From an uncultured Phycisphaeraceae bacterium (lineage in GTDB: Bacteria; Planctomycetota; B15-G4; JADJEK01): a stretch of DNA of 64,000 nucleotides. The position numbers and the translations under genes were made by a program. Within the stretch, counting starts at the first letter, position 1. Each line of letters begins with the position of its first letter. Positions 11,973 through 64,000 of the stretch are shown here, piece after piece. The stretch covers positions 15,217-79,216 of the forward strand of contig CAZYQW010000147.1 in NCBI GenBank assembly GCA_964649825.1, given 5' to 3'. Under the pieces are notes generated by a model. It saw nothing but the letters and a program-made list of their open reading frames with translations, ran no database searches and was not told the DNA's origin.

Positions 11973-12021
11973 CGCATCCTCTACGTGATTCCCGTGGTGC
12001 GACCGGCTACGATCCCGCGCC

Positions 12022-13182: not shown

Positions 13183-13234
13183 AATTCCGGGCTTTGTCGT
13201 CGAGCCCTCGAGGAGTGGAGCGAGCCGGTCCGGA

Positions 13235-20731: not shown

Positions 20732-22318
20732 GTGCGGACGCAGCTCATCCACCCCCCGGTCTACCTCAACGTCCACGCCATGACGGCCTTGCGGCCGAGC
20801 ATGCCGTTGGGGCTCGCCTACATCGCGGCGACCCTGGAGCAGGCCGGCCACTCGGTCTCGGTCATCGATGCGGTGGCCGAGGCGCCCGACCGCGTCACCA
20901 GCGATGGTCAGCTCCACCGTCTCGGCCTCTCGCCCGATGAGATCGCGGACCGGATCGCGCCCGACACCGAGGTGATCGGCGTCACCAATATGTGGACGTT
21001 CTCCTGGCCGCTGGTGCGCGACATCCTCCGCACGTTGAAGCACCGGCACCCGGACAAGGCCCTGATCTGCGGCGGCGAGCACTTCACCGGGCTGCCCCGG
21101 CTGTCGATGGAGCAGGCGCCGATCGATTACATCGTCCTCGGCGAGGGCGAGGAGACGATCGTCGAGCTGATGCGGACGCTCGAGAGCGGCGAGCGCGACC
21201 CGGGCGACATGCCGGGGGTGGCGTTCCGGCGCGACGGCGAGATCGTCCTGAACGAGCGTCGGGCGCGCGTGACGGCGGTCGACGCGCTGCCGTGGCCCGC
21301 GTGGGATCGGTTCGACCTCCGCGCGTACAACGAGCACGCGCTCCTGAACGGGGTGAACGCCGGCATGACGGTGCCGATCCTCGCCACGCGCGGTTGCCCG
21401 TACCAATGCACGTACTGCTCGTCGCCCGGCATGTGGACGACGCGCTGGTACCCTCGCGACCCGGTCGACGTCGCGGACGAGATCACGCACTACGTCAAGA
21501 CGTACGGTGCCCGCAACTTCCCGTTCCAGGACCTGACCGCCATCATCAAGAAGGACTGGATCGTCACGTTCTGCAACGAGATCATCCGCCGCAAGCTCGA
21601 CATCGTGTGGCAGTTCCCCTCCGGCACGCGCTGCGAGGTGATCGACGACGAGGTCGCGGAGCTCCTGCAGAAGTCCGGCGGCCGCCACCTCGCGTTCGCG
21701 CCCGAGAGCGGTTCCGAGCGCACGCGCAAGCTGATCAAGAAGCGGATGACGACGCAGGGCCTCTTCAACGCGGTCGAGGCGTCGGTCCGTCACAAGCTGA
21801 ACATCACTGCGTTCCTCGTCATCGGCTTCCCGCACGACACGAAAGAGGACATCCAGGAGACGGTCCGGTTCGTGCGGACGCTCGCGAAGAAGGGGATCGA
21901 CGACATCGCAATCGGCTTCTACTTCCCGATCCCCAACACCGAGATCTACCGGTTGCTCGTCGAGCAGGGCCGCGTCGACTATTCCGACAAGTGCCTGATG
22001 ACGCCGATCTTCGCGAACGACGAGAAGCTGCGGCCCGAGAACAACTACTGCGAGCACCTCACCGCGCGCCAGCTCACGCGGACGAAGTACTGGCTCCTGT
22101 TGAACTTCTACGGCCTGTCGCTGCTCCATCACCCCGGTCGATTCTTCAAGATGTTCGTCAACGTCGTCCGCGGTCGGGAGACACGGAAGATGGAGACGTT
22201 CCTGATCGAGCTGAAGCGCAAGTCGCTGCTCTGGGTGCGGAGCAAATTCCGCCGCGCCGAGCCGCCCGAGTCGACGCCCGCGTCTGAACCGGATCGGGAG
22301 AAGGCGGCGGTCTCCTGA
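20732..22318 (+). CDS. B12-binding-domain radical SAM protein
   Basis: PLGLAYIAATLEQAGHSVSVIDA, ICGGEH, TRGCPYQCTYC (CxxxCxxC) and ESGSER. GTG start. Confidence 0.9.
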   Translation: MRTQLIHPPVYLNVHAMTALRPSMPLGLAYIAATLEQAGHSVSVIDAVAEAPDRVTSDGQLHRLGLSPDEIADRIAPDTEVIGVTNMWTFSWPLVRDILRTLKHRHPDKALICGGEHFTGLPRLSMEQAPIDYIVLGEGEETIVELMRTLESGERDPGDMPGVAFRRDGEIVLNERRARVTAVDALPWPAWDRFDLRAYNEHALLNGVNAGMTVPILATRGCPYQCTYCSSPGMWTTRWYPRDPVDVADEITHYVKTYGARNFPFQDLTAIIKKDWIVTFCNEIIRRKLDIVWQFPSGTRCEVIDDEVAELLQKSGGRHLAFAPESGSERTRKLIKKRMTTQGLFNAVEASVRHKLNITAFLVIGFPHDTKEDIQETVRFVRTLAKKGIDDIAIGFYFPIPNTEIYRLLVEQGRVDYSDKCLMTPIFANDEKLRPENNYCEHLTARQLTRTKYWLLLNFYGLSLLHHPGRFFKMFVNVVRGRETRKMETFLIELKRKSLLWVRSKFRRAEPPESTPASEPDREKAAVS

Positions 22319-25825: not shown

Positions 25826-26012
25826 GGCCCTGTCTCCGTTCGATGTGTTCCGGTCGTCGTCGGATCGAGAGCGAACGTAGCGAGGTCCGGGTCGTCGCCG
25901 CGTAACGGATCCGTCACGGTCGATCCGGTCCGCGTCCTTGAAGAGCGAGGCTCGATCTCCTCGACCCCGAGCGCCACGTCGCTGCTCCTCTTGCGTGCCG
26001 TCGCGTGCCGCG

Positions 26013-27467
26013 TCAACGCTCGGCCACGCCGATCACGCGAAACCCGACATTGTCGCTGCGCGTCGCGCCGTCGATGACGTCGCGGTTGCTCGACCGACAA
26101 CCGGCGTAATTCGTCGCCCAACCGCCGCCGCGAACGACGCCGAGCTCGCCCGAGATCGCCGGCAGGGCGCCCGAGGGGAGACACCACTCCGCCACGTTAC
26201 CGTGGCAGTCGTACAGTCCCCACTGATTCGGTGCGAGCGAGGCGACGGGGAACGGTCCCACGCCTCCCGGACCGAGGTTCGACTCGAACCACGCGACCTC
26301 CGGCAGGCGATCTGCGAAGACGCGGCGATTCGTCGGAGTCAACGAAACCGCGATCGGAGCGCGAGTCGCGGCGCGGCACGCATACTCCCATTCGTCCTCG
26401 GTTGGGAGTCGAAACCGATAGCCGATGCCCTGCTCGCGGGCGAGCCGGCTGAGGACGAGGCAGAACCGCTTCGCCTCGACCAGCGTGAGCCCGTGAACCG
26501 GCAGCGACGGATCCTGGACGGACGACGGGTTCTGCCCGAGTACGCTCGCGTACGACTCCTGCGTTACCTCGGTCCGACTCATCAGCACCCCACCATCCAT
26601 GGCGAAACGCCTTTGCTTCTCCTGAGTGACGTCCGCGTCCTGGTCGATCTCGTCGGCGCCGGCCGGCCCGACGGCGGACATGCCGAGCGTCGTGACACCC
26701 GCGGGGATCGGAAGGAAGTCGACGCCCAGAAACGTAAGACGAGGAGGGGCGGGCGGAGGGATTTCCACTTGGCGGATCCAAACGAGATCGAGGAGCACGC
26801 CCGCGGCGGAGCTCGCGAGCTCGTCTGCCGTTCCGAGGACGAGTTCGCGCTCCTCCGTGCTGGCCGGCGCCTTCGCCGACGTCGACGACGCCAGATCCCG
26901 CGCATAGTCCAATCCGAGGAGCCGTCCCAACGGCAGGTCCGCGACCGCGAACCCGCGGAGGTTCTCGACCGCGACGATCGCTCGGCGATCCCCGGCAACG
27001 GCGGCATCGTTCAGGACGCGATGAGCCCGAGCGATACACCAGAACCACTCGCGGGACGACATGCGTTGTTCCGACAGCGACGATGCCACGTCGAACGCGT
27101 TCGGCCGAGTGACGAAACGGTACGCGGACAGCCAATGGTGCGCCGCGTCTCGCCATTCACGTCCCGCGCTCGATCGGGACAGGTCGTCCGGCTCCAATAG
27201 CCGATCGGGGCAGGCGTCGACGAAGGAAGTCGTCACCACGCCTCGTATCCGCAGCGCCCTCATCCAGCGGTCCCGTCGCAGATGCTGGTCCAGTGGGATC
27301 CGGAACGGGTACGCGTGATCCGTCGCTCGGGCGGTCTCGAACAGTGGCTGATCCCCTGCCGCGAATCTCCGGACCTCGGCCTGGACGACGACGCCAGCGA
27401 GAACGCTTGCCACCAGCGTCGTCACGATCGCGGCGACCGTGATCTTTCGCCACGCCACCGTCCTCAC
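26013..27467 (-). CDS. FGE-sulfatase/SUMF1-fold protein with an N-terminal membrane anchor (TagR-like)
   Basis: SRTEVTQESY, FRLPTEDEWEYACRA, PNQWGLYDCHGNVAEWC and RGGGW...R....VGFRV. GTG 27467 overlaps the upstream stop (GTGA). Confidence 0.8.
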   Translation of the reverse strand: MRTVAWRKITVAAIVTTLVASVLAGVVVQAEVRRFAAGDQPLFETARATDHAYPFRIPLDQHLRRDRWMRALRIRGVVTTSFVDACPDRLLEPDDLSRSSAGREWRDAAHHWLSAYRFVTRPNAFDVASSLSEQRMSSREWFWCIARAHRVLNDAAVAGDRRAIVAVENLRGFAVADLPLGRLLGLDYARDLASSTSAKAPASTEERELVLGTADELASSAAGVLLDLVWIRQVEIPPPAPPRLTFLGVDFLPIPAGVTTLGMSAVGPAGADEIDQDADVTQEKQRRFAMDGGVLMSRTEVTQESYASVLGQNPSSVQDPSLPVHGLTLVEAKRFCLVLSRLAREQGIGYRFRLPTEDEWEYACRAATRAPIAVSLTPTNRRVFADRLPEVAWFESNLGPGGVGPFPVASLAPNQWGLYDCHGNVAEWCLPSGALPAISGELGVVRGGGWATNYAGCRSSNRDVIDGATRSDNVGFRVIGVAER

Positions 27468-28726
27468 CGCTCGACGGGCGGCGGCCGTTTGACGATCGCC
27501 ACGAGGCGGAATCCGAGGGTCGCCTCGCGAGCCGTCGCCGGCATGCTCGTGCGGAAGGAGCACTGGAACTGCCAGGGGTTCTTCGTGGCGACATGGCCTC
27601 CCCGCACACACATCAAGCTGCTCTCCGAATGGGCCTTCTCCGATGACGGATCGTGCGTGATCCCGCCGCCTCCGACCTGCTTCCAACGATTGTCGGACCA
27701 AGTGTCCCAAGTCCACTCCGCGACGCCACCCGCAAGATTGGCGATCCCACTGTCGGTTCGGTCCCGCTCGAAGTCGTAGGTTCCACGCTTCCCCCTCACC
27801 AGATTGGCCATTGTGTCGGCGACGTCGAAGTCATCTCCCCACGGGAAAAGACGACTGGGCTCCGAACCCGATACCGCGGCGTATTCCCACTCCACTTCCG
27901 TCGGCAAGCGCACCGTCAGCGACGTCGTGTCGTCCCTGCGATACAACTTCCAAGAGTCGCTCAGCCTTCGAGTGAACTCATATGCGTCGGTCCAGTTCAC
28001 GAATCGCGCCGGCTCGTCGTCTCTCGCGGACTCGAGATCGTCGAGGGCACCCAGGTGCTCCGCGTAGGACCGATTGCTCCAGGAACGGCTCGGCTTCTCG
28101 ATCCCCATGACGACTCGGTACGCGAGATCGGAGACTTCCGTGGCCCCGATGTAGAACCCATCCGAGATCGTGACCGGCACCAGTGGCGATGAGAGCGCCC
28201 CGGCGGGCGACATCGAATTCAAGACGGTCTGAGCTGGTTCGAGTCGGTTGTCTGTCGGATCGATCCCGACCGTGCACGTTCCCGGATCGACCCGCACGAA
28301 CCGGAGTTCGCAAGTCGTCCCACGTGCGGTCACCACGATCTTCGCCGTACCGGCTTCGTCGTCTTCGACCCATGCGATCGACGGCTCGCGCGCGGTCCGC
28401 TGACGCTCGGGGGAAGCGCGTACATTTTTCTGAAGTGCACGCAGCGCGGACAGCACGGCCTCGATCCGTTGCGTCTGCTCCACGTGCCTCCCCAGGAGTT
28501 CCTCGACCTGCGTGGCCAACAAGTCGACCTGACGCACGAGTTCGTCCGCTCCGGCGAGCTTCGAATCCGGTGACGGTCGCTCGGTCGTGTCCTCCGCTCC
28601 GCCGGAGGACGTGATCCGAGCACGTGGACTCCGCGGATCCGGCTGGGCCAGGGTCGCGCAGTCCGACGAAAGACAACCGACCGTCAGCACGACGGCGATC
28701 GGGAACGTGTGAATCGGTCTCGACAC
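27464..28726 (-). CDS. Secreted FGE-sulfatase/SUMF1-fold protein with an N-terminal coiled coil (TagR-like)
   Basis: Signal-like N-terminus; coiled coil ELVRQVDLLATQVEELL...; IGATEVSDLAY, RLPTEVEWEYAA, NLAGGVAEWTWD and VRGG...TLGFRLV. Confidence 0.8.
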   Translation of the reverse strand: MSRPIHTFPIAVVLTVGCLSSDCATLAQPDPRSPRARITSSGGAEDTTERPSPDSKLAGADELVRQVDLLATQVEELLGRHVEQTQRIEAVLSALRALQKNVRASPERQRTAREPSIAWVEDDEAGTAKIVVTARGTTCELRFVRVDPGTCTVGIDPTDNRLEPAQTVLNSMSPAGALSSPLVPVTISDGFYIGATEVSDLAYRVVMGIEKPSRSWSNRSYAEHLGALDDLESARDDEPARFVNWTDAYEFTRRLSDSWKLYRRDDTTSLTVRLPTEVEWEYAAVSGSEPSRLFPWGDDFDVADTMANLVRGKRGTYDFERDRTDSGIANLAGGVAEWTWDTWSDNRWKQVGGGGITHDPSSEKAHSESSLMCVRGGHVATKNPWQFQCSFRTSMPATAREATLGFRLVAIVKRPPPVER

Positions 28727-28798
28727 TTCGTGGTTCTCCTCTTCGGTGCCTACCCAAACGTGGATCCCCGCTGCGCGTTCTCTGTACTTCCTCGTCGT

Positions 28799-31700
28799 TC
28801 ATGCCGCCTGCTCGATGAGCTTCACCGGTTCGAACCTCGCCGCCTTGAGGCCCGAGTAGCAGAACGCGAAGACGCAGCTCGCGCACACCATCGCGAGCGC
28901 CTTCAGGCAGTCGGAGAACTCGATCCAGCAGGTTCCCGGGCTGACCAGCGCGTTGATCCCGGCCTGGACCAGGTAGCCGCCCGAGATGACGAGGGCCGAT
29001 CCGATTGCCATTAGGAAAAAGTTCCGGACGGTTATGACCCAGAGCACCGCAGCGGGCGTGAGTCCGACCAGACGGAGAACGCCGATCATCGGCATACGCT
29101 GAAAGACGTTCATGACGGTGACGATGAAGATCGTGACGATCGCCGCGAGGAACGTCGCCCAGTAGATGATCGACACGAGTCGCTCCAGGATCGCGGCGTT
29201 GCCCTGCAGCTCTTTCACCGCGAACACGCCCGGCGCGTGCACCTCGAAGTCCGCTGCCAGCACCTGACGAAGCACGGGGATGTCCTCGATGTCCTTGGGG
29301 TAGACGAACGCCGTCGTGAACTCCAGATTTCCCCGGAGCGCGGGATGGAACTTGCCGGTCGCTCGATCGAAGACGACCGTTCCGATCTCCTGGGCGCGGT
29401 GGAGCGCGACGAGGTCCTCGGGTAGGTACACCCAGTCGCGAAGCGGGTTGTCGAGGTCGTCGAGGTCCACGGGGCGGCGGCCGACCGCGACCTCGTACGT
29501 GACGTCGTCCGCGACCCTCACCTCGACTCCCTCTTCGAACGCCAGGCTCAGCTCGCTGGGCACGGGGAGCGGGTGAGAGTCGTCGGGCGGCATCAGAGCC
29601 ACCATGGGTAGCAACGTCTTGGCCACGGGGCGCGCGAACAGGTCGGAGATGCCGTCGAGGAACCGGGGCTGTTTCGCTTCCCTCGCCCGGCTCTTCGTGT
29701 GGACGTAGTACGGAAGTCTCCCCCGCAGCTCCTGAGGTAGGCTGATCGCCCGGAAGGACGACCCGCCGATCGAAACGTCGATCGGCGGATTGAATCCGAG
29801 GCAGAACGCCTGTTCGTTTTCGTTTCTTCCCGACCCTTCCCGCAGACGTCTCCAAAGGCTCCTTCGCGCGCCGTCGGTCAGGACGACCGGTCGCCGTTGG
29901 CCGGAGTCGTCACGAAGGCGGCTCACGACGGCCGCGCACCTGGCGTACGACGGGAACTTCGGGGCGTCCGCGCCGGTCATCCGGGGTCGGTCGAGATACC
30001 CGAAGAACGTCGCTCGCGGATCATCGCTCGCGATCTCGACACACTCGAGTTCATAGGACTCGAGCAGTTGGGCCGCCTCGAGGTCGAGCAACGGCTCGTC
30101 CGGGGACCGCTGTGAGTAGAGGAGGATCGACTCGTAGGCGTATTCCACGTCGCCATACCGGTTCTCCGTCCCCGGAAGATGGAACTCGGTCGGCGCCGAA
30201 AGTCCGCCGCGAATGCCGGAGTCGTCCGTGATGTCGACGGGGAACCCCTGCCGGAAGATCTCGAGCTTCTCCAGCAGACGCAGCGGAACATACGCCGTTT
30301 GGTAGCGAGGATCGGACGTGATGAGGTCGAGGATCCGGACGGGGACCCAGTGGAATTCGCCGCCGTTGTGAACGCCGAGCTCCAGATAGCCGGCGCTCAG
30401 CGTCGCGTTGGCTGGGACGTGTCGAGACTCGACCGCGTAACGCAGCAGTTTCTCCGCGTGCTCGCGATAGACGACGATCTCCAGAGCACGCCCCGTCAGC
30501 GGCCGAAGCCCCAGCGTATCGATCAACGGATCCCGCTCGTCGAGCAGGTAGATCTGATAGTTGTCCGCCTCGACGTCGCCTTCTCGCTTGAGGAACCCCC
30601 GAAACCATTCCGATTCTTCGGACTGCCCATTCAGGAACTCCGAGTCGAGCGCCGGAATCGGATCCACGTCGCCGGGAGTCCGGAAACGGAGTTTGCCGTT
30701 GATCGAACGTCCGAGAGAGATTGCGCGAATCGCGGGGAACTCGGACTTGAGCTGCTCGCAAAGCGTCCCGTTGAGCGCGGTCGACTCGCGCCACGGCGTG
30801 ATGCGCAGGCGCGACAGGGTCGGGCTCTGACGGATGTTCTGCGTGAGCCGCTGGATCAGCCCGTTCCTGAGCCCGAACAGTAGCAGGAGCGGGAGCGTGA
30901 GACACAGAACGGTGAGAATGAACGAGGTAACGAGGTTTCGGTCGTGGTACCCGTCCTTGATGGCGACCTTGGTGTACATGCCGAACCGCCCGAGAAGACT
31001 GCTTCGATCGAGCTGCGAGTTTCCGTCGCTCGAGAGTTCGTCCGCCCACACGCTCTTCCGCTCCTCGATCGATTGTGAGTCCCGGATGATGACCGCCGTC
31101 GAACGCGACGTCCGCTCGTAGTCCACGGTTCCCAGCCACTGGCGGTCCTCGAACGAGCGGAGCCTCAGGATCGGAAGACCGAAGTGTCGCGCGAGCTCCT
31201 CGTCATGCGTGACCATGACGATCGTGCTCTGCGACTCGAGTGAATCGCGCATCGCGAGAAGAGCTCGGACGGCCGCGAACGCGCTCTGCTGATCCAGGTT
31301 GTTCGTCGGTTCGTCCGCGAAGACGAGCGTCGGATTGTGGACGATCGAACGCGCGAGGAGCACCCGCTGTCGCTGGCCGCCCGAGAGAGCGGATCGCCGC
31401 GAGCCGCGGATTCGGTCGACGAGCTCTTCGCCGTTGGTCCCGTTCGACCACGTCGGGCGCTCGTCGGCGGGATCGAACAGGGAATGGAAAAGGTTCTTCT
31501 CGTACTCGAGCGCCTTTCCACGCTTGGCAACGTCCCGGAGCTGGCCCGTGGCGTGCAGCGGCAGCGAGACGTTCTCGGCCGCGGTGAGTGCGCCGAGAAG
31601 CTCGCCCGACTGCAACGCGAACCCGATGTGATGGCGCCGCACGACCTCACGGATGTCGCTCGGTACGGCCCGCTTCGCGTTCTGGATCACGAGAGGCTCC

Positions 31701-32002
31701 GCCGATACCTCCGGAACGCTCAACGTGAAGAGATCGACGTGGGTCGGCTTCCTCAGCAGCCCCATCACCGTCAGTAAGGTCGTCTTGCCGCACCCGGACG
31801 GCCCCACCAGGCAGACGAAGCTTCCCCGCGCGATCTCGAGGTGGGGAACGTGAAGCAGGAACGAGTTCTGCGGCCGGATCGGCTCGACCGAGGCGAGCAC
31901 TTCCTCCGCGCTGGCTCCATGAGGGGGCCGCCAACCATTCGGCCCGTTGAAGAAGTGCCACAGGTTGGAGATGTGGATCGCCGGCGCGTTGTCGGAGCTC
32001 AC
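28799..32002 (-). CDS. Fused ABC ATPase + FtsX/MacB-type permease (TagT/TagS-like)
   Basis: GPSGCGKTT, LSGGQRQRV, VFADEPTNNLD and VTHD. TM1 (LTLPLLLLFGLRNG) is followed by a periplasmic region of about 560 aa and three C-terminal TMs. Start GTG 32002 with AAGGGG upstream. Confidence 0.85.
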   Translation of the reverse strand: MSSDNAPAIHISNLWHFFNGPNGWRPPHGASAEEVLASVEPIRPQNSFLLHVPHLEIARGSFVCLVGPSGCGKTTLLTVMGLLRKPTHVDLFTLSVPEVSAEPLVIQNAKRAVPSDIREVVRRHHIGFALQSGELLGALTAAENVSLPLHATGQLRDVAKRGKALEYEKNLFHSLFDPADERPTWSNGTNGEELVDRIRGSRRSALSGGQRQRVLLARSIVHNPTLVFADEPTNNLDQQSAFAAVRALLAMRDSLESQSTIVMVTHDEELARHFGLPILRLRSFEDRQWLGTVDYERTSRSTAVIIRDSQSIEERKSVWADELSSDGNSQLDRSSLLGRFGMYTKVAIKDGYHDRNLVTSFILTVLCLTLPLLLLFGLRNGLIQRLTQNIRQSPTLSRLRITPWRESTALNGTLCEQLKSEFPAIRAISLGRSINGKLRFRTPGDVDPIPALDSEFLNGQSEESEWFRGFLKREGDVEADNYQIYLLDERDPLIDTLGLRPLTGRALEIVVYREHAEKLLRYAVESRHVPANATLSAGYLELGVHNGGEFHWVPVRILDLITSDPRYQTAYVPLRLLEKLEIFRQGFPVDITDDSGIRGGLSAPTEFHLPGTENRYGDVEYAYESILLYSQRSPDEPLLDLEAAQLLESYELECVEIASDDPRATFFGYLDRPRMTGADAPKFPSYARCAAVVSRLRDDSGQRRPVVLTDGARRSLWRRLREGSGRNENEQAFCLGFNPPIDVSIGGSSFRAISLPQELRGRLPYYVHTKSRAREAKQPRFLDGISDLFARPVAKTLLPMVALMPPDDSHPLPVPSELSLAFEEGVEVRVADDVTYEVAVGRRPVDLDDLDNPLRDWVYLPEDLVALHRAQEIGTVVFDRATGKFHPALRGNLEFTTAFVYPKDIEDIPVLRQVLAADFEVHAPGVFAVKELQGNAAILERLVSIIYWATFLAAIVTIFIVTVMNVFQRMPMIGVLRLVGLTPAAVLWVITVRNFFLMAIGSALVISGGYLVQAGINALVSPGTCWIEFSDCLKALAMVCASCVFAFCYSGLKAARFEPVKLIEQAA

Positions 32003-32093
32003 TGCTCGACCCCTTGTCGTCAAGTTACGTGGTGCATTGCGCCGCAGTTCCGAACGGAAGCGACGGCGCAACTCGGAAACGAACGATGCGCAA

Positions 32094-34097
32094 TCAGGTC
32101 ACGTCGACGATCTCGATGAACGCCACCGCGTCGTCCGCTTCCTGATTGCCGGGGAGATCGAACCACAGCCCGGCGTCCTCGGTTTGCTCGCGCAGCCGCT
32201 TGGCCATGCTGTCCAGGTTCTCGACCATCCGCTTTCGGTCGGCTGCGGTCTGCGCCGCGATCTGCTCCGGGGTGAGGCTCATCGTCTTGGTCGTGATCGG
32301 GAGGCCGCCGACGATCTGGAACACCTCGCTGAGCGGCGTGGTGGGACTGATGTCGCGATCGATGCCGACCGCCGCGAGCCGTTGCTGGAGGTTCGCGACG
32401 AGCGCCTGCGCGTTGATGTCCGTACCGCCGATCTCGCCTGCCACGAACGACAGCGTGTTCTCGAGCCGCTTGCACCGCCTCTTGCTGGTCAGGAACTTCT
32501 CCTTGACGGTCTTCGCGCCGTAGGTGTCGTATCCCGACACCCACCCCGAGTGCATTCGCGTCGCGTTTCTGCCGGCGGAGTCGTCTTGCGGTTTGAGCAT
32601 CTCCATCATCACGACGAACGGTCTTGGCACCCCGGCGAACTCCGGAGCGCCGACATCGAGCTCGTAGATGTCGTCGCTGCCGCCCGTGATCAGGCTCTGC
32701 ACCGATCCCGCGCCGCCGATCTGCAGCCGGATCGTAGCCAGCAACTCCTGCTTGAACCCTCCCGCGTTTCCCGGCTGGAGCTGCAGGTGCCGACCCTCGA
32801 AGAAGCCCTTCGTGAGGGTACTGAACTGTTGCGTTCGAAGCGCGTGGAGCACGTCCCCGTTGTTCTCTGCCATGATCTCGGCCGCGAACACCATGATGGC
32901 GCTCTTGACCCCGTCGATCGTGGCGACCGTGTCGTCCACGGGTTGCGCCAGGTCGACGATCTCCGCGGCACGGAGCTTCGAGCTGTTCCATTCAGGGTGA
33001 CAAGCGGCGTCGTAGCCGTTCTCGTCGCCCACGAGCACCAGCGTCTTGAACGCGATCGGGCTCCAGTCCATGCCCGTCACGGCGCGGTGGACGCCGCCGA
33101 GGACGTCCTCGCCGTCAGCGCCGCCTCCCGTCGCTTTGATCGTTCGAAGGCGGCGCAGGAACTCGCCGTGATCTGCACCGTCGCTCAACGTGCACTGAAT
33201 CGCCACCTCCGACGGCCCCTGATACGTAACGATGCCGAACCGGTACTTGTCCTTGACGTTCGCGTCGCCTTCCCCGAGTTCCTTCGACACCTGCTCGATC
33301 GTCGCCACGACGGCGGCGATGAACGGATCCATCGAGCCACTCGCGTCGACGCAGAAGACGACGTCGACCTTGAATTCCCCAAGGGTCTTCCTGAACTCAT
33401 CCACCTCTTTGTCCGGGGCGTCGACGACGTCGTTTCCGGCCACAGTCCGGGGGATCGTGATGAACGCAACCTCGAAGAGATCATGCTTCGTCCCGTCCGC
33501 GGCGGTCTGATCGGGCTTGGCGTCGATGACGGGCATGACGAATCCATTGTTCCCGAGCCGCTTCGGCTCCATCGCAATCGCTATCTCGTCGTCCTGGACC
33601 TCCGGATCCGGGTAGTTCGAGAAGCCATTGTTCCAGTCGCCGTCGTTCTCATAGAACCGGACGCGCTGGCGCGCGGGATTCCTCGGATCTCTAGGATCGC
33701 CGCGAGGCATGAAGGCCAACGCCTCCCGATGCCACCATTCGATGACGTCACTACTGTGAATGAAGCCGTATTGGGTCTGCCTCTTCGCACGTTCCGCCGT
33801 ATGAACGCGATACCAGTGACCGTTCGCGTCCTCGGCGATCTTGTATTGCTTCGGATCGTCGGGACTCGGCAGCACGTAGAAGAACTGCATCGGGGCGACG
33901 GTCTGTCGGAGCAGGCGGTTGTCGGCTCTAGGCTCCTTGTAGACGCTGGCCTCCCTGCGGATGATGATCTTCAAGGGGGCGGGCCGTCCGGCGACCTCGA
34001 CGACGTGCTCGTAGGTATCCGTCTGCGCCTGGGCGGTAGGGATCGCTCCCAGGGACGCCAGGAGCAGCACTTCGATCGGGTAATTGCGTGCGAGCAT
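32094..34097 (-). CDS. Secreted vWA-domain protein resembling the extracytoplasmic region of T6SS kinase PpkA; no kinase domain
   Basis: Signal peptide ending AQA; SH3-like N-terminus (WYRV...GFIHSSDVIEW); MIDAS DVVFCVDASGSMDPFI; RFGIVTY; EDVLGGV..A...MDW; LVLVGDE; C-terminal GLP and LWF motifs. Confidence 0.75.
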   Translation of the reverse strand: MLARNYPIEVLLLASLGAIPTAQAQTDTYEHVVEVAGRPAPLKIIIRREASVYKEPRADNRLLRQTVAPMQFFYVLPSPDDPKQYKIAEDANGHWYRVHTAERAKRQTQYGFIHSSDVIEWWHREALAFMPRGDPRDPRNPARQRVRFYENDGDWNNGFSNYPDPEVQDDEIAIAMEPKRLGNNGFVMPVIDAKPDQTAADGTKHDLFEVAFITIPRTVAGNDVVDAPDKEVDEFRKTLGEFKVDVVFCVDASGSMDPFIAAVVATIEQVSKELGEGDANVKDKYRFGIVTYQGPSEVAIQCTLSDGADHGEFLRRLRTIKATGGGADGEDVLGGVHRAVTGMDWSPIAFKTLVLVGDENGYDAACHPEWNSSKLRAAEIVDLAQPVDDTVATIDGVKSAIMVFAAEIMAENNGDVLHALRTQQFSTLTKGFFEGRHLQLQPGNAGGFKQELLATIRLQIGGAGSVQSLITGGSDDIYELDVGAPEFAGVPRPFVVMMEMLKPQDDSAGRNATRMHSGWVSGYDTYGAKTVKEKFLTSKRRCKRLENTLSFVAGEIGGTDINAQALVANLQQRLAAVGIDRDISPTTPLSEVFQIVGGLPITTKTMSLTPEQIAAQTAADRKRMVENLDSMAKRLREQTEDAGLWFDLPGNQEADDAVAFIEIVDVT

Positions 34098-34215
34098 CTC
34101 CGTTCTCCGTTAGGGTCGTGGCGAGCTACAATTGCCTTCGGCTCGACCACGGCCTACTCAATGACATGACGCCGGCTGGACCAGCGCGGCGTGCGAAATC
34201 GCTTCCGTTCGTTCG

Positions 34216-36087
34216 TCAACGGACCCACTCGGCGAGCACACGAAAGCCCACGCTCGGTTTTGCGCTCGCCTTGTCGATGACGTCGCGATTGCTCGATCGA
34301 CAGCCCTGATAGGACGTCGTCCAGCCCCCGCCCCGCGTCGGAGCCGCGTGCGCCGGCACCGGCGGGAGGCTCTTCGACGGCCGACACCACTCACAGACGT
34401 TTCCGTGGAAATCGTGGAAACCCCATCGATTCGGACGGAGCTGACCGACGGTTTGCGGACCGTGCCGCGAGTTGCTTTCAAAGAACGCGATCTCACGAAG
34501 GCGCTCAGAGAGTGGGCGGTAGTTCGGAGTGCCATCGACTTCGAACAGATTGATCGGCAGCGGAGACCCCGCGCGACAGACGTACTCCCACTCGTCTTCA
34601 TCCGGCAACCGGAAGACGAAGGGGAGGCCGGCGCTCTGTACGGCCGTCGAGAGGCTCGCACAGAAGGCCTCGGCTTCGTCGAAGGTCACGGAACGTGCCG
34701 GCTGTCGTTGTCGACTCGGAGGCGACGGGACCCGGTGCTGTGCGACGTAGTCGTACGTCGCCTGGGTGACCTCGACCTCGGCCATGAGCTTGAAGGCGTC
34801 CATACGGTACGGGCGCGACGGTTCGTCAGCGGCGCTGGCGTCCGGATCGACTTCGGAACGACCCGCCACGCCGACCGTCGACGTGCCGAGGGAGCCCGTT
34901 CCCGGCGGGATCGGTGCCAACTTGAGCTCCCACGGTTGATCCGGCCACAGCGAGAGACCGCGTCCGTGTAATTTGGTCTTGAGCTTCAGAGCGAGTGCTG
35001 CGTCCTCGGACTTCGTCGCGATGTCGTAGAGCCACGGATCGACGGGTCCCGTCTTCTTGTCGAGTGCGTCGGCATAGCGCAAGACGAGCGACCGGAGTTC
35101 GGTGGTCGTCAACGCCGCTCGCGTCTGAACGTCGCTCGTGGCCTCCCCTTTGGTGGATGCAAGGCGCAACACGATCGCGAGCTCTGATTGATTGCCGACC
35201 ATCGCCTCGGCGATGGTCGGCCAGAGGTCGAGTTTGACGTACCCTTTGGCGTCCGTCTGGACGATGGTCGTCGATTCCGGCCGATCCTCTACGAACCACT
35301 CGATCGACATGTCGGCTGCCGGGCGCGAGCCGACGTCGACGATCTCGTGGATCCCAAGCTCCGCGGGTGGTTCGGACGCCATCCCGGCTAACAGAACGAC
35401 CGGCGTCGAGAAGCCCAGAGCGAGCGTGTCCATCGTCAAAGCGCTCGTCAACGTGACGGCGTCGGTTGCGGCGAGGACGGTTGCCGTCACGGCGTCCAAG
35501 GTCAATCCCGTCGCCAGGGTGGAGACGTCGAACGCGCCGAGCGAAGCCGTGATCGCGACGTCCGGTCCGAGGAGGGCGACGCTCATCACGGTGTCGATCA
35601 CGGGTGGGATGATGAAGAGGACCAAGCCCGACAGGTATAGAGGCGTCAATGCGGCCGCGACGTCGGTGTAACTGTCATTGTTGTAGGCGGCGTGCGTCAC
35701 GGGAAAGACGTGGTCGCCGTGGTACCACTGCGTCAAGAGGAACGGATAGTGGCATGCCACGGGGAACAAGCCACCACCCCGGAGCCCGGTCAGAGGGAAT
35801 GCATCGCTCTCGAACCACTTCTTGGTGAGGAAGATCGATTGCCAACCTCTCGTGGCCGATTCCTCGGAAGCGGAGAACGAGATTTCCGTGTCTTGCGTCG
35901 AGATGACGCGCTCCTCGGATACGTAGAGTCGACCGAGGGCCGGCCAGGCTCCAGCTCCGGTGACGCGCAAATCCTTGTTGAACGAAAGTGCGGCCGCGCG
36001 AACCTCGGGGACCGGGTTCGGCACGCTCTCGTGCTCGTACGCGAGATGGCAGCTCGTGAGCAGGAGCGCGAACGAGCACCGGGCCAT
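34216..36087 (-). CDS. Lipoprotein with a hydrophobic 11-residue-repeat segment and a C-terminal FGE/SUMF1-fold domain
   Basis: MARCSFALLLTSC contains the lipobox LTS-C (alternative start ATG 36183). C-terminal AEVEVTQATY, FRLPDEDEWEYVCRA, PNRWGFHDFHGNVCEWC and RGGGW..VGFRV. Confidence 0.75.
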   Translation of the reverse strand: MARCSFALLLTSCHLAYEHESVPNPVPEVRAAALSFNKDLRVTGAGAWPALGRLYVSEERVISTQDTEISFSASEESATRGWQSIFLTKKWFESDAFPLTGLRGGGLFPVACHYPFLLTQWYHGDHVFPVTHAAYNNDSYTDVAAALTPLYLSGLVLFIIPPVIDTVMSVALLGPDVAITASLGAFDVSTLATGLTLDAVTATVLAATDAVTLTSALTMDTLALGFSTPVVLLAGMASEPPAELGIHEIVDVGSRPAADMSIEWFVEDRPESTTIVQTDAKGYVKLDLWPTIAEAMVGNQSELAIVLRLASTKGEATSDVQTRAALTTTELRSLVLRYADALDKKTGPVDPWLYDIATKSEDAALALKLKTKLHGRGLSLWPDQPWELKLAPIPPGTGSLGTSTVGVAGRSEVDPDASAADEPSRPYRMDAFKLMAEVEVTQATYDYVAQHRVPSPPSRQRQPARSVTFDEAEAFCASLSTAVQSAGLPFVFRLPDEDEWEYVCRAGSPLPINLFEVDGTPNYRPLSERLREIAFFESNSRHGPQTVGQLRPNRWGFHDFHGNVCEWCRPSKSLPPVPAHAAPTRGGGWTTSYQGCRSSNRDVIDKASAKPSVGFRVLAEWVR

Positions 36088-36908
36088 GTGTCTGGTTCGA
36101 CCCGCGCGACGAGGCGGGGCGAATTCTCGGAACGACGTCGTCGCTCGCACCAGCACGTCGCGCGTTGTGCGGTACATTTCCATGAGGGTTCGCCGGAACT
36201 ATCGCGACTCCATGTGGCTGTGAACGATCCATGACGAACGTCACGGGTCGATCGACTGCACGACGCCGTCGTCAAGGGTTCTCGATCGAATCCGTAACAC
36301 GTCGAGCGGGCGGCGCGGGTTCTCACTGACAGGAACGATGTCGCTTGTGGAACCCGCCGCCTTTTCTTGACCGAGACGTTCGATTCCGTCGCACAGAGGA
36401 AGCGGGCATTGATTCGACGGCCAAACTCCTGTTGCGCTCTGCGGCCGCTGATCCCGGGGCCGCTGGTAAAGAGGGCTCGATCGGCGGCGACGGTGTCGCG
36501 GCGGCGCGACGTGGGCTCGCCGCGGTCACAGCCACGGCGCGGCGGATGCCGCGGAATGCCGCCGCAGGGGATCGCGGCCGAGCTTGGCGGGTACCTGCAC
36601 GCCCGGTCCGGTCGGGGTTGTCGCCGTTGCATTTGTCGATCTCGAGGTCGCTGCCGATCGACGTCAAGGTGAACGCGACGCCGTTGTCGCCGTTCGCGCG
36701 CTTCGGGACGACTGTCGAGTCACGCTCCACTGGTCGACATCGAGGTCGTCGGCGCCGCCGCCCGTCGCGATCGAGAGGCGCCGATGGTGGGACACGACTG
36801 GATGACGGCCTCGTGGTCCCTTGCCGAGCCGCACGTCGACGCGCGACGTGGAATGGAACCTAGACCCCATTCCTTGCATGGGATCGGCGATTCCCATGGG
36901 TCAGCCGG

Positions 36909-37637
36909 TCAGCGGTTGATCGCGAGCTCGCGTTCGAGCCGTGAGCGGTACGCCACCGACTCGTCGCGCCGGCCGAGGAACTCGAACGAGAGCGCGAGCT
37001 GGTAGAGGGCCTCGCAGCGCGCGCTGCGCGTCGCCTCCTTGAGACGGAGCACCTCGTGCGCGGCCTCCGTCACTTCGGACCACTCGCCGCGTCGCGTCCG
37101 CTGGATGGTGCGGATCATGCGCACATCGTGGGCCATCGTCGTCGGGGACACGATCGTGGGTTGCGGCGTCGGCGAAAGACCCGACGTCAGCGCCGAGCCG
37201 TAGGCCATGAGGCCGACGCCGATCAGGTGGTGGATCGGATCGCGGGACATGGCCGGAGGATCCTCTTCGATCGCCTCATCCACGTCGACCACGCCGACCG
37301 TCTCGTCTACCGCGACCGCGACTTCGCCGGCACTCTCGGATCGATGGGCGCGATGGTCGCCATGGTCGAGGGGCGACGGGTCGAAGCGGAACGAGGCGCC
37401 GACGGCGATCAGGAAGAACGCCGCCGCCGCGTACGCCAAGGGCGCGGGTCGGAGGACTCGCCAACCGCGCCGGCGCCGTGACGGCATGGCGGGAGTCACC
37501 GTCGACCACGCGTCCTTCATCCAGCGCAAGGTGGCCTGGGTTCGCGGATCGGCCTCGTCCAGCCGGTCGCCCCGTTCGGGAGGCTCGACGGCCCGCCATG
37601 CCTCTCGGAGGCGCTCGATGGCATCTCGATCGTTCAT
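36909..37637 (-). CDS. Putative anti-sigma factor (single TM, C-terminal TPR-like helices)
   Basis: Translationally coupled (ATGA) to the ECF sigma; TM LAYAAAAFFLIAVGASF; C-terminal EALYQLALSFEFLGRRDESVAY. Confidence 0.55.
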   Translation of the reverse strand: MNDRDAIERLREAWRAVEPPERGDRLDEADPRTQATLRWMKDAWSTVTPAMPSRRRRGWRVLRPAPLAYAAAAFFLIAVGASFRFDPSPLDHGDHRAHRSESAGEVAVAVDETVGVVDVDEAIEEDPPAMSRDPIHHLIGVGLMAYGSALTSGLSPTPQPTIVSPTTMAHDVRMIRTIQRTRRGEWSEVTEAAHEVLRLKEATRSARCEALYQLALSFEFLGRRDESVAYRSRLERELAINR

Positions 37638-38224
37638 GATGAAAGACCTCCACCTCCTCCGGCGCGGGCGACCTCGGGAATCCGGTGGCCGAGGATCGTG
37701 CGCAGCCGCCGCCGCGCCAACGAGAGGAGCGACCGCACCGTCCCCTCGGTGATCCCCAGGACCTCCGCGACATCGGGGCTCTCCGCCCCTTCCAAGTCGC
37801 GCAACACGAACACTTCGCGCTCCCGATCCGTCAACTTCGCCAGGCTCTCGCGCAGAATCGTGTGCACCTCGGCCGCGGCGGCGACGTCGTGGGGGTCGGG
37901 CAGGAGATCGAGGTCGGTCACCGCGGCCGACTCCTCGGCCCGTCTCCGGGTCGCCCGACGCCGCAACCGGTCGCGGCAGAGGTTGGCCGCGACGGTGTTG
38001 CGCCAGGTGGTGAACCGACGCGACGGATCGAATGCCGCCAACCGATCGATCAACTGGAGCATGGCGTCCTGCGCCACGTCCTCGGCTTCCGCCTCGTCGG
38101 CCAGGAAGCCGAAGCAGAGGCGGAAGACGCGGGGATGCTCACGTCGATAGAACTCGTCCTGGGCGGCGGAGTCGCCGGCCAGGACGCGCTCCAGCAACGG
38201 ATCGTGGCTGAGGTCCGGTGTCAT
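37634..38224 (-). CDS. ECF (sigma-70 group 4) RNA polymerase sigma factor
   Basis: Region 2 EAEDVAQDAML...FTTWRNTVAANLCRD; region 4 LTDREREVFVLRDLEGAESPDVAEVLGITEGTVRSLLSLARRRL. Start ATG 38224. Confidence 0.9.
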   Translation of the reverse strand: MTPDLSHDPLLERVLAGDSAAQDEFYRREHPRVFRLCFGFLADEAEAEDVAQDAMLQLIDRLAAFDPSRRFTTWRNTVAANLCRDRLRRRATRRRAEESAAVTDLDLLPDPHDVAAAAEVHTILRESLAKLTDREREVFVLRDLEGAESPDVAEVLGITEGTVRSLLSLARRRLRTILGHRIPEVARAGGGGGLSS

Positions 38225-38313
38225 GTCTCTGGGGAGAGTACGGCGGTCGACCGCCGGGCGCTGAAGGGAAAATCGAGCCCTGGCGTTCGACGAACGAGCG
38301 GAACCGACCCACG

Positions 38314-38339
38314 GGAACGTGGGATTGCTTATTCTCGTC
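38314..38339 (+). promoter_or_regulatory. Possible ECF-type promoter (GGAAC-N17-CGTC)
   Basis: GGAAC at 38314-38318 and CGTC at 38336-38339, about 105 nt upstream of the 38446 gene and next to an ECF sigma gene. Pattern match only. Confidence 0.3.
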
Positions 38340-38445
38340 GACTCTCTTCGATCCGCGTTACGAATCTCGTTTCGCTGCGTCCCTCGTGCACGCGATCGGT
38401 CCCGCTCACGACATTCGAGCCGTACGCGCACGCAAAGGAGGAGTC

Positions 38446-48028: not shown

Positions 48029-48184
48029 ATGAGACGGTGCGAGATGCTCCTGTGCGAGTGCGAGGTGGAGGAGTCGAAGGTCGTGGAGCGGGACGGCGGC
48101 TTCTTCTGCTCGGAAGCATGCGCTCGTGACCAGGCCGACGATGATGGCTTCTGCGGCTGCACCCACGAGGTCTGCGTCGACTGA
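48029..48184 (+). CDS. Bacterial metallothionein-like protein 2 (51 aa, acidic)
   Basis: MRRCEMLLCECEVEESKVVERDGGFFCSEACARDQADDDGFCGCTHEVCVD; GGGAGG upstream of ATG 48029; same Cys/His positions as protein 1. Confidence 0.85.
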   Translation: MRRCEMLLCECEVEESKVVERDGGFFCSEACARDQADDDGFCGCTHEVCVD

Positions 48185-48279
48185 TCGGCGATCCGCCGTC
48201 GCCGCCACGTCGATCGCCGCCGCGATCGAGGAGACCGGCCCGGCCGTCGACCACGGCGCGTTCGTTATGCTCGCGCGTC

Positions 48280-59814: not shown

Positions 59815-60111
59815 CCCGAGCCGGTCGTCGCGCATGCCGCGCGAATCGATGCTCGCGCCCACCGCTTCGCGGCGTCGCCCGTCGTTCATCCTCTCGCGCG
59901 GACCGTACGCGCGAGATAGGCTGCGCCAGCGACTTGCGACGAACGCGAGGATGCCGCTGTCGTACCGCGTGGTTCGCGCCCCGGCTTGAGCAACTCTCAA
60001 GAAAAGCCTTGCGCGAGGCCGACAGGTTCATCATCCAGGACTATGGTGGGACCGATGGCGTGGGGCGCCGAATGCGTGGCGCCTACGGGTTCCCCGCAGG
60101 AGGCTCGCAGA

Positions 60112-62154
<2,043 letters not shown>

Positions 62155-62157
62155 ACC

Positions 62158-63273: not shown

Positions 63274-64000
63274 GCACGAACCTAACGCCGGAGCTCGAAG
63301 CGGCCCGACGAGAGATCGAGGCGTTCGCCACCGGCTACGGCCTCGACTTCTTCGAGACGATCTTCGAGGTGCTCGACGCGGATCAACTGAACGAGGTCGC
63401 CGCCTTCGGCGGATTCCCGACGCGCTATCCCCATTGGCGTTTCGGGATGGAATACAACCAGCTCGAGAAGGGGTACTCCTACGGGCTCTCGAAGATCTAC
63501 GAGCTCGTCATCAACAACGACCCGTGCTACGCCTACCTGATGCGGTCGAACGCGTTGGTCGACCAGAAGCTCGTGATGGCGCACGTCTACGGGCACTGCG
63601 ACTTCTTCAAGAACAACCTGTGGTTCTCGAAGACCGACCGCAAGATGATGGACCACATGGCGAACCACGGCACCGTGATTCGCCGGTGGATCGATCGCGT
63701 CGGGCTCGAGGAGGTCGAGCGATTCCTGGACGCGTGTCTCTCGCTCGACAACCTGATCGATCCGCACTCGGTGTTCATCCGCCGGGCCGCGAAGCCGGCG
63801 TCGCGGGACCGCGCGATCGCGGAGGAGCTGGTCAAGTTCAAGAGCAAGGGATACATGGACTCCTTCGTCAACCCGAAGGAAGCGACCGAGCGCGAGAGGG
63901 CTCGGATCCGCCATGAGGCCGAGCAGGACGAGAAGTTCCCGCCGCGGCCCGTGCGGGACGTGCTTCAGTTCCTGCTCGATCACGCCCCGCTGCAGCGGTG
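63270..64000 (+). CDS. spoVR: SpoVR/YcgB family protein (3'-truncated by the window; not in the ORF track)
   Basis: Hand-translated from ATG 63270 (overlaps the yeaH stop): [33 protein letters not shown]...[12 protein letters not shown]...[15 protein letters not shown]...[14 protein letters not shown]. Confidence 0.95.

Follow-up and report, generated by a model that had tools for sequence, protein, structure and literature searches.

We analyzed a window of 64,000 nucleotides (positions 15,217 to 79,216 of contig CAZYQW010000147.1, from an uncultured Phycisphaeraceae bacterium) with respect to g2, a minus-strand gene at 32094..34097 whose 667-aa product carries a domain of the von Willebrand factor A (vWA) type. 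In our assessment, g2 probably encodes a free-standing, exported homolog of the ectodomain of PpkA, the kinase that belongs with TagQRST to the H1 type VI secretion system (T6SS) of P. aeruginosa, and is part of a kinase-less, TagRST-like envelope sensor cassette. We regard this as the best joint explanation of the similarity of g2 to PpkA-type kinases, of its partner genes and of the distribution of its relatives. The operon as a whole, rather than the single gene, is the more fitting level at which to describe the finding.

The Three-Part Protein Encoded by g2

The open reading frame (ORF) of g2 begins with ATG, 7 nt downstream of a GGAG motif. Its GC content at the three codon positions is 0.64/0.42/0.85 in a contig of about 70% GC, a pattern that identifies g2 as a real gene; in addition, its product is matched by Pfam VWA and by a full-length family profile. 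The protein starts with MLARNYPIEVLLLASLGAIPTAQA followed by QT, where a positively charged n-region, an h-region of 13 residues and an AQA site can be read from the sequence. Accordingly placed, the predicted Sec signal peptide comprises residues 1-24 (34026..34097, minus strand) with cleavage after AQA, and an equivalent N-terminus is present in 6 of 6 close homologs. No further transmembrane (TM) helix is apparent, as no 19-residue window elsewhere in the protein reaches a Kyte-Doolittle value of 1.6. A Hanks kinase domain was looked for with Pfam and NCBIfam without any Pkinase match, and the NCBIfam models gave no match of any kind on g2. Hydropathy scan, Pfam and NCBIfam thus agree with the initial annotation, a reading of the bare sequence, in that g2 has neither a TM segment nor a kinase; the cleavable signal peptide it had proposed is consistent with the Sec-type N-terminus of g2 and its homologs. 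Altogether, these features are consistent with an exported, three-part, kinase-less protein, the signal peptide of which is predicted to be cleaved.

The AlphaFold2 (AF2) model of g2 (pLDDT 87.4, pTM 0.76), built from an alignment of 104 sequences, shows three regions, to which we refer jointly as the module. In the N-terminal all-beta region (residues ~42-213; 33459..33974, minus strand), residues 42-130 form about 10 short strands, and a further piece of beta/alpha structure, with strands at 187-213, extends to residue ~213; the region contains the motifs EWWHREA (W121) and MPVI (P189). The vWA domain follows at residues ~229-440 (32778..33413, minus strand). Pfam VWA matches residues 245-378 with an E-value of 1.5e-8, VWA_2 and VWA_4 also score above cutoff, and the metal ion-dependent adhesion site (MIDAS) is intact, being composed of D251-A-S253-G-S255 (the D251-x-S253-x-S255 motif, nt 33333-33347) and D358. 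The C-terminal domain (residues 441-667; 32097..32777, minus strand) starts with a long helix at 445-471, continues with a small sheet and a helical bundle, and carries the motifs GW, GLP (P600) and LWF (W645). Neither the N-terminal nor the C-terminal region is covered by a Pfam model.

The initial annotation had listed a series of motifs, a vWA domain with intact DxSxS, and a helical tail. Every motif of this list occurs in g2 and in the same order, namely IEWWHREALAF..RVRFY, MPVI, DVVFCVDASGSMDPFI, EDVLGG..A..MDW, GW, GLP and LWF, and the vWA domain is confirmed by Pfam together with D251, S253, S255 and D358; the tail is mostly helical as far as the AF2 model predicts. The listed motifs fall on near-invariant columns of the 104-sequence family alignment A3: D251 is invariant, S255 and D358 are at least 90% conserved, and W121, P189, E330, G335, W345, P600 and W645, all of which are found in g2, are invariant or at least 90% conserved. 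The label SH3-like for the N-terminus is left unconfirmed: neither SH3 nor any other Pfam family matched the N-terminal fragment at E<=10, and no family, SH3 included, was found by Pfam on N- and C-terminal fragments of g2 and of the T6SS-/Srf-type homologs from Tistrella and Klebsiella.

Known structures cover the central domain, which comes closest to integrin I and beta-I domains. By Foldseek, g2 matches integrin I domains in the PDB with TMt ~0.75, with the vWA part alone being matched; likewise, profile A3 finds integrin beta-8/6/3 with the vWA part only, and profile A4 has no match in the PDB. Neither by sequence, nor by profile, nor by Foldseek did the PDB searches yield a solved structure for the N- or C-terminal domain. 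Two candidate relationships were discarded: PlsX, which came up in a single-sequence search of the PDB, is a chance match (E ~0.7), and the hit of TssR_VWA on g2 (E 0.042, 13 bits vs. a cutoff of 25.7) is noise.

Similarity to PpkA-Type Kinases

A word-indexed search with g2 returned only six relatives, which share about 42% identity and are conserved over their full length; together with g2, they constitute a 7-sequence family profile. The exhaustive HMMER search with this profile against 1.84 billion representatives gave 4731 matches at E<=1e-3 and 53 at E<=1e-30. The best 150 matches are mostly 600-700 aa long, and many are aligned over nearly the whole length. Two proteins combine a Hanks-type Ser/Thr kinase with the complete module and match the family profile as one end-to-end stretch each: P0047 (1028 aa; profile 42-664, E 1.1e-37) and P0099 (995 aa; profile 45-662, E 1.7e-24). 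Other proteins carry the module at the C-terminus of a TIR domain (P0054), of PG_binding_1 (P0051), or of a 2670-aa transglutaminase/TPR protein (P0022).

The locus of P0099 (L005) has the gene order tssM (3' end; TIGR03348, 257 bits), tagF (TIGR03373, 150 bits vs. a cutoff of 41), P0099, ATP-binding cassette (ABC) protein, FtsX, and a GldK-like protein of the formylglycine-generating enzyme (FGE) fold. With neighbors that resemble TagT, TagS and TagR, P0099 represents a PpkA-type kinase of a T6SS locus. Together with T6SS-locus proteins from Tistrella and Inquilinus, it stands in this study as a surrogate for PpkA of P. aeruginosa.

Split into its three parts, the profile of the g2 subfamily matches both kinase fusions collinearly with all of them. 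The N-terminal sub-profile scores 23.7 bits on P0047 and 10.6 bits on P0099, the vWA sub-profile 70.9 and 50.5 bits, and the C-terminal sub-profile 48.6 and 23.2 bits, respectively. For the reciprocal comparison by HMMER, the proteobacterial clade supplied the sub-profiles, and g2, all ORFs of the window and 2000 shuffles served as targets; on g2, the vWA sub-profile reached 58.2 bits and the C-terminal one 24.1 bits, with the best decoy at 5.5 bits. An hhalign comparison of the g2 subfamily with the proteobacterial T6SS/Srf clade spans 584 columns (34-663 vs. 40-668) with 99.9% probability and an E-value of 3.9e-34. Compared alone, the C-terminal part attains P 2.5e-10 (97% probability) and the N-terminal part P 1.3e-5 (80% probability), and mismatched controls range at P 0.24-0.34. 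Direct pairwise comparison is in line with these results: phmmer aligns g2 residues 88-662 with the kinase ORF of L005 at 54.5 bits, and BLASTP aligns g2 with the vWA protein of the Tistrella T6SS locus at 21% identity over 634 columns.

Since the C-terminal and the N-terminal parts score separately, the similarity is not confined to the generic vWA core, and the resemblance to PpkA that the initial annotation had pointed out is supported by whole-length hhalign, by the separate scores and by the collinear matches on the kinase fusions. On the level of profiles, the C-terminal link to PpkA-type proteins is solid, and the N-terminal link is weaker but present.

The Operon of g2 and Its TagRST-Like Partners

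The g2 gene is the second of five genes (g1 to g5) in a minus-strand operon with gaps of 118, 22 and 72 nt, followed by an overlap of g4 and g5 (GTGA). The first gene, g1 (34216..36183, minus strand), encodes an envelope protein whose C-terminus is formed by a TagR-like domain of the FGE-sulfatase fold (Pfam residues 425-650, E 8e-24). Its true start is likely the internal Met at 36087, which would give the lipoprotein-type signal MARCSFALLLTSC. Starting 22 nt past the stop of g2, g3 (28799..32071, minus strand) encodes a protein of 1090 aa in which an ABC ATPase like TagT is joined to an FtsX permease like TagS (Pfam ABC_tran and FtsX). It shows a MacB-type topology with the ATPase at residues 77-305, TM1 at 380-398 and the remaining TMs within 968-1073, with four hydrophobic peaks; in NCBIfam, the ATPase is of the DevA/LolD/FtsE/MacB type with scores far under the equivalog cutoffs. 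The periplasmic insert of g3 (about 570 aa, residues 399-967) is much larger than that of MacB or LolC/E and has no Pfam match. The two last genes encode further FGE-sulfatase-fold proteins: g4 (27464..28726, minus strand) a putative lipoprotein of 420 aa (..VVLTVGC; Pfam E 7.8e-30), and g5 (26013..27467, minus strand; GTG start overlapping the g4 stop) a protein of about 484 aa that carries a membrane anchor at its N-terminus (Pfam E 4.3e-26). Pfam finds no usable match on the N-terminal halves of g1, g4 and g5.

These genes correspond to those of the T6SS-locus kinase P0099. By phmmer, g3 matches the ABC protein (73.7 bits) and, collinearly, the FtsX protein (36.1 bits) of L005, and g1, g4 and g5 match its FGE protein with E-values of 2e-6 to 3e-9 in a small database. 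Besides L005, the proteins at the TagR position in Tistrella and Klebsiella are matched by g1, g4 and g5. The nearest solved relatives of the FGE domain in g1 are the non-enzymatic TvpA, a variable protein of a diversity-generating retroelement (DGR), PorK/GldK, and PvdO. A relationship with the PorK/GldK proteins of the type IX secretion system (T9SS) was rejected, as the FGE fold is all that is shared. COG1262 is the FGE/SUMF1 domain. TagR has been assigned to this COG, TagS to COG4591 and TagT to COG1136 (PMC13584744). As these classes correspond to those of the operon, each operon gene has a counterpart in the TagRST-PpkA sensor.

Genes for a Hanks kinase, PP2C, TagF, PppA, Fha, TssL/M or any other Tss protein, VgrG or Srf were not found within the 64-kb window, and a BLAST comparison gave no kinase among its ORFs either. 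Judged by gene content, the locus is a kinase-less TagRST/PpkA-type envelope cassette, because g2 shares its operon with the partner classes that surround PpkA in T6SS loci.

Distribution of the Module and Its Partners

In the loci L001, L091 and L097 of the g2 subfamily, an ABC gene with 46-50% identity to g3 comes after the vWA gene. The locus L092 shows the order ABC, FtsX, FGE, FGE, vWA, and the gene of the TIR-fused P0054 is preceded by two FGE genes. In L006 (GCA_024449685.1 contig, 1538-14450), the gene of the kinase-fused P0047 is followed by those for a protein of 1006 aa, a CHAT protease, two unfused paralogs of the module and an ABC protein like g3; this context looks like a conflict system. 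Among GTDB species representatives, a scan with alignment A1 found no relative of g2.

The proteobacterial clade is much larger. At least 586 loci were found in the scan of GTDB species representatives, 80 of which (L011-L090) were kept for counting partners. Directly downstream of the module, an ABC gene is present in 78 of the 80 loci and an FtsX gene in 76; an FGE gene occurs in 46. Upstream or nearby, SrfABC was found in 33/80 loci, a kinase in 16/80 (one of them fused) and T6SS genes in 6/80. Many loci are devoid of any T6SS gene within 10 kb, and in 32 of the 80 (including 11 on short contigs) none of SrfABC, kinase or T6SS genes was found.

A homolog search with the module of P0099 gave 1204 proteins at E<=1e-10. 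Among the 120 matches listed of these 1204, a kinase domain occurs only in P0099 and P0157. Both in this search and in the profile search, kinase-less proteins of 640-700 aa dominate the family. Many of them (among P0158-P0265) are named 'serine/threonine-protein kinase PpkA' by JGI with no Pkinase recorded, and plasmid records of Klebsiella (CP061360.1, MN423363.1) call kinase-less members 'serine/threonine protein kinase'. The kinase name of these members appears to be carried over from the C-terminal region of PpkA.

By tblastn, the P0099 module was found in 126 plasmid records, of which 114 are from Klebsiella. Loci of Klebsiella and Haematospirillum show the order SrfA, SrfB, SrfC, hypothetical/TPR, vWA, ABC, permease, SUMF1, hypothetical. 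The arrangement recurs: srfA-srfB-srfC regularly lies upstream of a TPR/hypothetical gene and the vWA-ABC-FtsX-SUMF1 cassette in L007, L009, L098, 33 of the loci L011-L090 and 114 plasmid records of Klebsiella. A match in Cereibacter that had been considered as a T6SS cassette turned out to be a cassette of the Srf type instead.

Tistrella mobilis pTM1 (L010) carries the module in a T6SS locus. Its genes follow in the order tssK, tssL, tssM, tagF, PP2C, kinase, vWA, ABC, FtsX, SUMF1, hypothetical, vgrG, and at 7484-10887 one gene encodes the kinase (475 aa) and its neighbor the vWA module (658 aa), i.e., a naturally split PpkA. As in Tistrella pTM1, a separate kinase gene lies directly upstream of the module in L095.

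Evolution of the Module

The two kinase fusions are mutually distant, ranking at 168-222 of about 265 with respect to each other. The module of P0047 is closest to the unfused P0026 (660 aa, 48% identity), and that of P0099 to the unfused P0156 (693 aa, 67% identity), on the contig of which a separate kinase gene is located upstream. That each fused module is closest to unfused proteins and the fusions are distant from each other supports fusion or fission of neighboring genes on more than one occasion, amid a large radiation of free modules. The distribution thus supports the free module as the common state, to which kinases, TIR, a peptidoglycan-binding domain and a transglutaminase/TPR region were attached independently in different clades. 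The initial annotation had suggested that the PpkA sensor region exists as an independent periplasmic protein and that PpkA perhaps arose by fusion, and it had called for a comparison of kinase-fused and free forms. This idea is in good agreement with the dominance of free forms, with the occurrence of split genes and with the two fusions in distant clades, each of which is nearest to unfused proteins.

A more far-reaching evolutionary scenario can be put forward tentatively, and we do not lean toward it. In this scenario, the TagRST-PpkA trigger would be a late, lineage-specific derivative of an old envelope-surveillance cassette (exported vWA module, type VII ABC/FtsX machine and FGE-fold binders) that is present in more than one phylum, is independent of a kinase and uses the ABC ATPase as its intrinsic cytoplasmic link, with outputs being interchangeable add-ons. 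Such add-ons would be the Hanks kinase leading to the T6SS, the SrfA pseudokinase with SrfBC, TIR, the transglutaminase/TPR giant, or, as in the g2 window, none at all.

Genomic Surroundings

Upstream of the operon, at a distance of 725 bp and on the same strand, lies a pair of genes for an extracytoplasmic function (ECF) sigma factor (37634..38431, minus strand; Pfam Sigma70_r2/r4/ECF) and an anti-sigma-like ORF (36909..37637, minus strand), the start of which is overlapped by the sigma factor stop (ATGA). The latter encodes 242 aa, shows a single TM stretch on visual inspection of the translation, and is matched by no Pfam model.

The region 26000..36000 has a GC content of 0.63-0.665 vs. 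0.70-0.73 in the flanks at 10-26 kb and 38-52 kb, and the cassette region may be a horizontally acquired island. Further stretches of low GC content are situated at 52-56 kb and 58-64 kb. A B12-binding radical-SAM gene is found within a few kb of the cassette both in the window (20732..22318, plus strand) and in L001 (6477-8069), where the g2 homolog is P0003 with 42% identity; this shared neighbor suggests residual synteny between related uncultured genomes. The TrpRS gene of the window shares 72% identity with that of a 'Planctomycetota bacterium' MAG, ahead of Myxococcales and Gemmataceae entries with 62-66%; tentatively, the host is probably non-proteobacterial.

On the plus strand, a large ORF at 48145..51600 encodes a STAND protein of the conflict-system type with an N-terminal TIR_2 domain (E 3.8e-15) and an nSTAND1 NTPase domain (E 5.4e-59). 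The plus-strand genes at 59920..63998 form a triad of PrkA (AAA_PrkA + PrkA), DUF444 and SpoVR, i.e., a conserved operon of the yeaG-yeaH-ycgB type that is cut at the window end. PrkA itself (59920..62154) is no PpkA-type kinase but belongs to an unrelated family.

Proposed Mechanism and Alternative Explanations

In a sensor cassette of this type, the FGE-fold proteins, the nearest solved relatives of which are TvpA, PorK and PvdO, would be lectin-like binders rather than enzymes and would sense a ligand or damage at the outer side of the periplasm. They may engage the vWA module through its metal-ion site, much as TagR probably engages the periplasmic domain of PpkA; metal-dependent FGE-vWA binding is proposed because of this analogy and of the near-invariant MIDAS. 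By mechanotransmission, the ABC-FtsX protein would link this assembly in the periplasm with the binding and hydrolysis of ATP on the cytoplasmic side. In relatives that have a kinase, attached or adjacent and bitopic, this kinase could be dimerized when the module clusters. Without a kinase, the cytoplasmic link may be the ABC ATPase, or else the end-point may be periplasmic work done by the ABC machine itself; as no kinase is present, the ABC ATPase is the sole cytoplasmic link encoded in the operon. It is plausible that the signal leaves via the ABC protein, as the initial annotation had suggested. ABC/FtsX is not a substitute peculiar to the g2 locus, because it is also a constant partner of the module in kinase-containing loci (78 of 80 loci in the count above). 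The upstream ECF sigma/anti-sigma pair might provide a transcriptional output.

Several observations weigh against the sensor cassette reading. Signaling by kinase-less members is proposed by analogy. The N-terminal similarity of the g2 subfamily to the proteobacterial clade is weak when taken alone (80% in hhalign), and in the reciprocal HMMER test the N-terminal sub-profile scores a non-significant 5.7 bits on g2. The link to PpkA runs via proteins of the PpkA type that are encoded in T6SS loci of Proteobacteria, uncultured ones among them, and via name transfer by JGI, not via PA0074. A TagQ-like lipoprotein (glycine-zipper/17-kDa-antigen-like) was recognized in no ORF of the 64-kb window, and the small ORFs downstream of proteobacterial cassettes show weak glycine-zipper matches only (E ~0.005); g1 and g4, though lipoprotein-like, have FGE domains. 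The ECF pair is absent beside the close g2 homolog in L001. As an exception to the usual cassette, the module occurs in the locus L094 (1382-8031) as three paralogs in tandem (635, 685 and 642 aa) that adjoin a response regulator, without an ABC/FtsX gene in the vicinity. Finally, a T6SS or an orphan kinase may lie elsewhere on the 143-kb contig or in the genome.

The main rival to sensing is a role in transport or sorting, in which ABC-FtsX would extract or export the lipoproteins g1 and g4 or other cargo, with the vWA protein serving as chaperone, adaptor or cargo. The MacB-type topology of g3, its LolD/MacB/DevA-type ATPase and the lipoprotein-like signals on g1 and g4 fit this view, and a preprint (10.64898/2026.09.18.752743) reads the Lol-like ABC + vWA + SUMF1 cassette flanking srfABC as an export/processing module. 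In T6SS loci, however, the cassette is wired to the kinase, phosphatase and TagF pathway, TagTS/TagR are treated as signal input (PMC13584744, PMC6082577), and the window holds neither Srf nor any other obvious cargo. Moreover, the module is also fused to cytoplasmic signaling domains (kinase, TIR), so that a receptor fits better than a cargo; on balance, we judge transport or sorting to be unlikely.

Less probable still are two readings that draw on other genes or systems. The proximity of the ECF sigma gene and its overlapping single-TM ORF on the same strand might mean that the cassette is the periplasmic sensing arm of this pair, controlling inactivation of the anti-sigma factor with transcription as the output. 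We consider this improbable, since the anti-sigma-like ORF is without a Pfam match, no ECF genes lie beside the close homolog in L001-L004 or in L092 and L097, and ECF pairs are very common in such genomes, so that the adjacency may be due to chance. No more credit is given to a surface anti-invader module, in which FGE/C-type-lectin-fold proteins of the DGR/TvpA type bind foreign ligands and the vWA protein nucleates the response. Among solved structures, TvpA indeed comes closest to the FGE domain of g1, g2 has relatives with a TIR fusion (P0054) or with CHAT as a neighbor (L006), a TIR-nSTAND1 gene is present in the window at 48145..51600, and pairing of FGE-sulfatase (FGS) and vWA recurs in conflict systems (PMC7159879). 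Yet the systems described there are built on MoxR-vWA pairs, and the operon has neither MoxR nor a STAND NTPase nor a DGR reverse transcriptase. In addition, 12 kb with unrelated genes separate the TIR-nSTAND gene from the operon, and it lies on the opposite strand. Conflict systems of the vWA-MoxR type appear to be mostly cytoplasmic. Hardly credible, in our view, is a generic secreted vWA adhesin or metal-binding protein whose resemblance to PpkA is limited to the vWA fold. Pfam and PDB matches do cover the vWA part only; but the C-terminal domain scores alone in both directions with negative shuffled and mismatched controls, the N-terminal domain scores alone by hhalign (P 1.3e-5) and on the kinase fusions, albeit not in reciprocal HMMER, the alignments are collinear over the whole length, and the gene order with ABC, FtsX and FGE is conserved. 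As far as profiles can tell, the sub-profile, reciprocal and hhalign results have already effectively refuted this reading.

Relation to Earlier Work

PpkA has been described to possess an extracellular VWA sensor domain, and TagR to interact with the C-terminal domain of PpkA (PMC3224232). TagR probably activates PpkA through binding of the periplasmic domain, and TagQRST was said to be restricted to Pseudomonas (PMC6082577). Campbell et al. (2013; PMC3608642) reported homologs of tagQ, ppkA, tagR, tagS and tagT beside srfABC in host-associated Deltaproteobacteria, where only one such genome, Desulfovibrio sp. 3_1, has T6SS machinery genes; 'PpkA' was treated as a kinase there. The preprint of September 2026 (10.64898/2026.09.18.752743) describes Lol-like ABC + vWA + SUMF1 beside srfABC, reads them as toxin export, and mentions neither PpkA nor the T6SS sensor. 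The missing kinase domain of the srfABC-linked 'PpkA' is stated neither in PMC3608642 nor in 10.64898/2026.09.18.752743. Similar srfABC-adjoining cassettes are thus already reported, and the kind is known in pieces. In the literature searched, we did not find it stated that the cassette 'PpkA' is a kinase-less, exported homolog of the whole PpkA ectodomain, that the cassette is a conserved unit in which the kinase is optional, or that the cassette extends to high-GC uncultured lineages in a form whose ABC and FtsX are fused, that has three paralogs of the FGE fold, and that lacks genes for Srf, a kinase or a T6SS.

These results touch the question of how P. aeruginosa senses incoming attack or membrane damage via TagQRST and PpkA. 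The periplasmic region of PpkA and TagT, TagS and TagR appear as a conserved cassette, commonly with no kinase fused to it, that is found at no fewer than 586 loci of one proteobacterial clade, on Klebsiella plasmids, and in the high-GC uncultured bacterium of g2. This would reframe PpkA as a kinase joined to a pre-existing module, which explains the database mis-naming of kinase-less proteins as 'PpkA' or 'serine/threonine kinase', and would link the enigmatic srfABC neighborhood to the T6SS sensor. Kinase-free cassettes may offer simpler systems for biochemical dissection of the sensor; if the scenario of an old, kinase-independent cassette held true, they would be a minimal system for what sensors of the TagQRST type detect, and how. 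As a practical outcome, g2 can be annotated more aptly as an exported vWA protein that resembles the PpkA C-terminus and belongs to a TagRST-like ABC cassette.

Comparison with Known Systems

The vWA-MoxR ternary systems of Kaur et al. (2020; PMC7159879) likewise combine vWA with FGS, and relatives of g2 are TIR-fused or located beside CHAT. These systems have a MoxR/iSTAND partner, however, whereas the g2 operon is devoid of MoxR and STAND and its vWA protein is predicted to be exported. An identity of the cassette with a vWA-MoxR ternary system was rejected for the lack of MoxR/STAND in the operon; conversely, ABC/FtsX and PpkA are absent from PMC7159879.

Like the type VII ABC proteins MacB, LolCDE and FtsEX, g3 combines an ATPase at the N-terminus with a membrane domain of the FtsX type that has four TMs and, inserted between TM1 and TM2, a large periplasmic domain. 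At about 570 aa, this domain of g3 greatly exceeds the Porter/Sabre domains in size; no Pfam model matches it, and no partner of the membrane fusion protein, TolC, LolA/B or EnvC type is encoded near g3.

The srfABC-associated cassette, too, lies outside any T6SS and joins a vWA module devoid of a kinase to ABC, FtsX and FGE genes. It differs in that it follows srfA-srfB-srfC, with SrfA being a bitopic protein of pseudokinase fold, whereas the g2 window is without Srf genes; its vWA protein shares only about 21-24% identity with g2. In the split form of Tistrella pTM1, too, a separate exported module of about 660 aa is followed by ABC, FtsX and FGE genes, but a bitopic kinase lies immediately upstream within a complete T6SS cluster, neither of which is present at the g2 locus.

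From PpkA (TagE)/TagQRST of the P. aeruginosa H1-T6SS, the g2 operon differs in several respects. Its vWA protein is without Hanks kinase and TM anchor, and PppA, Fha, TagF and Tss genes are missing from the 64 kb; ABC and FtsX are fused and enclose a periplasmic insert of about 570 aa; three FGE paralogs, two lipoprotein-like and one membrane-anchored, take the place of one TagR, with no TagQ recognized; and its host is a high-GC, probably non-proteobacterial, uncultured bacterium. In common with PpkA/TagQRST, it has the three-region extracytoplasmic module, which is homologous over the full length via PpkA-type kinases of T6SS loci rather than via PA0074 itself, and the same partner classes, a TagT-like ABC, a TagS-like FtsX and a TagR-like FGE protein, in the operon of g2.

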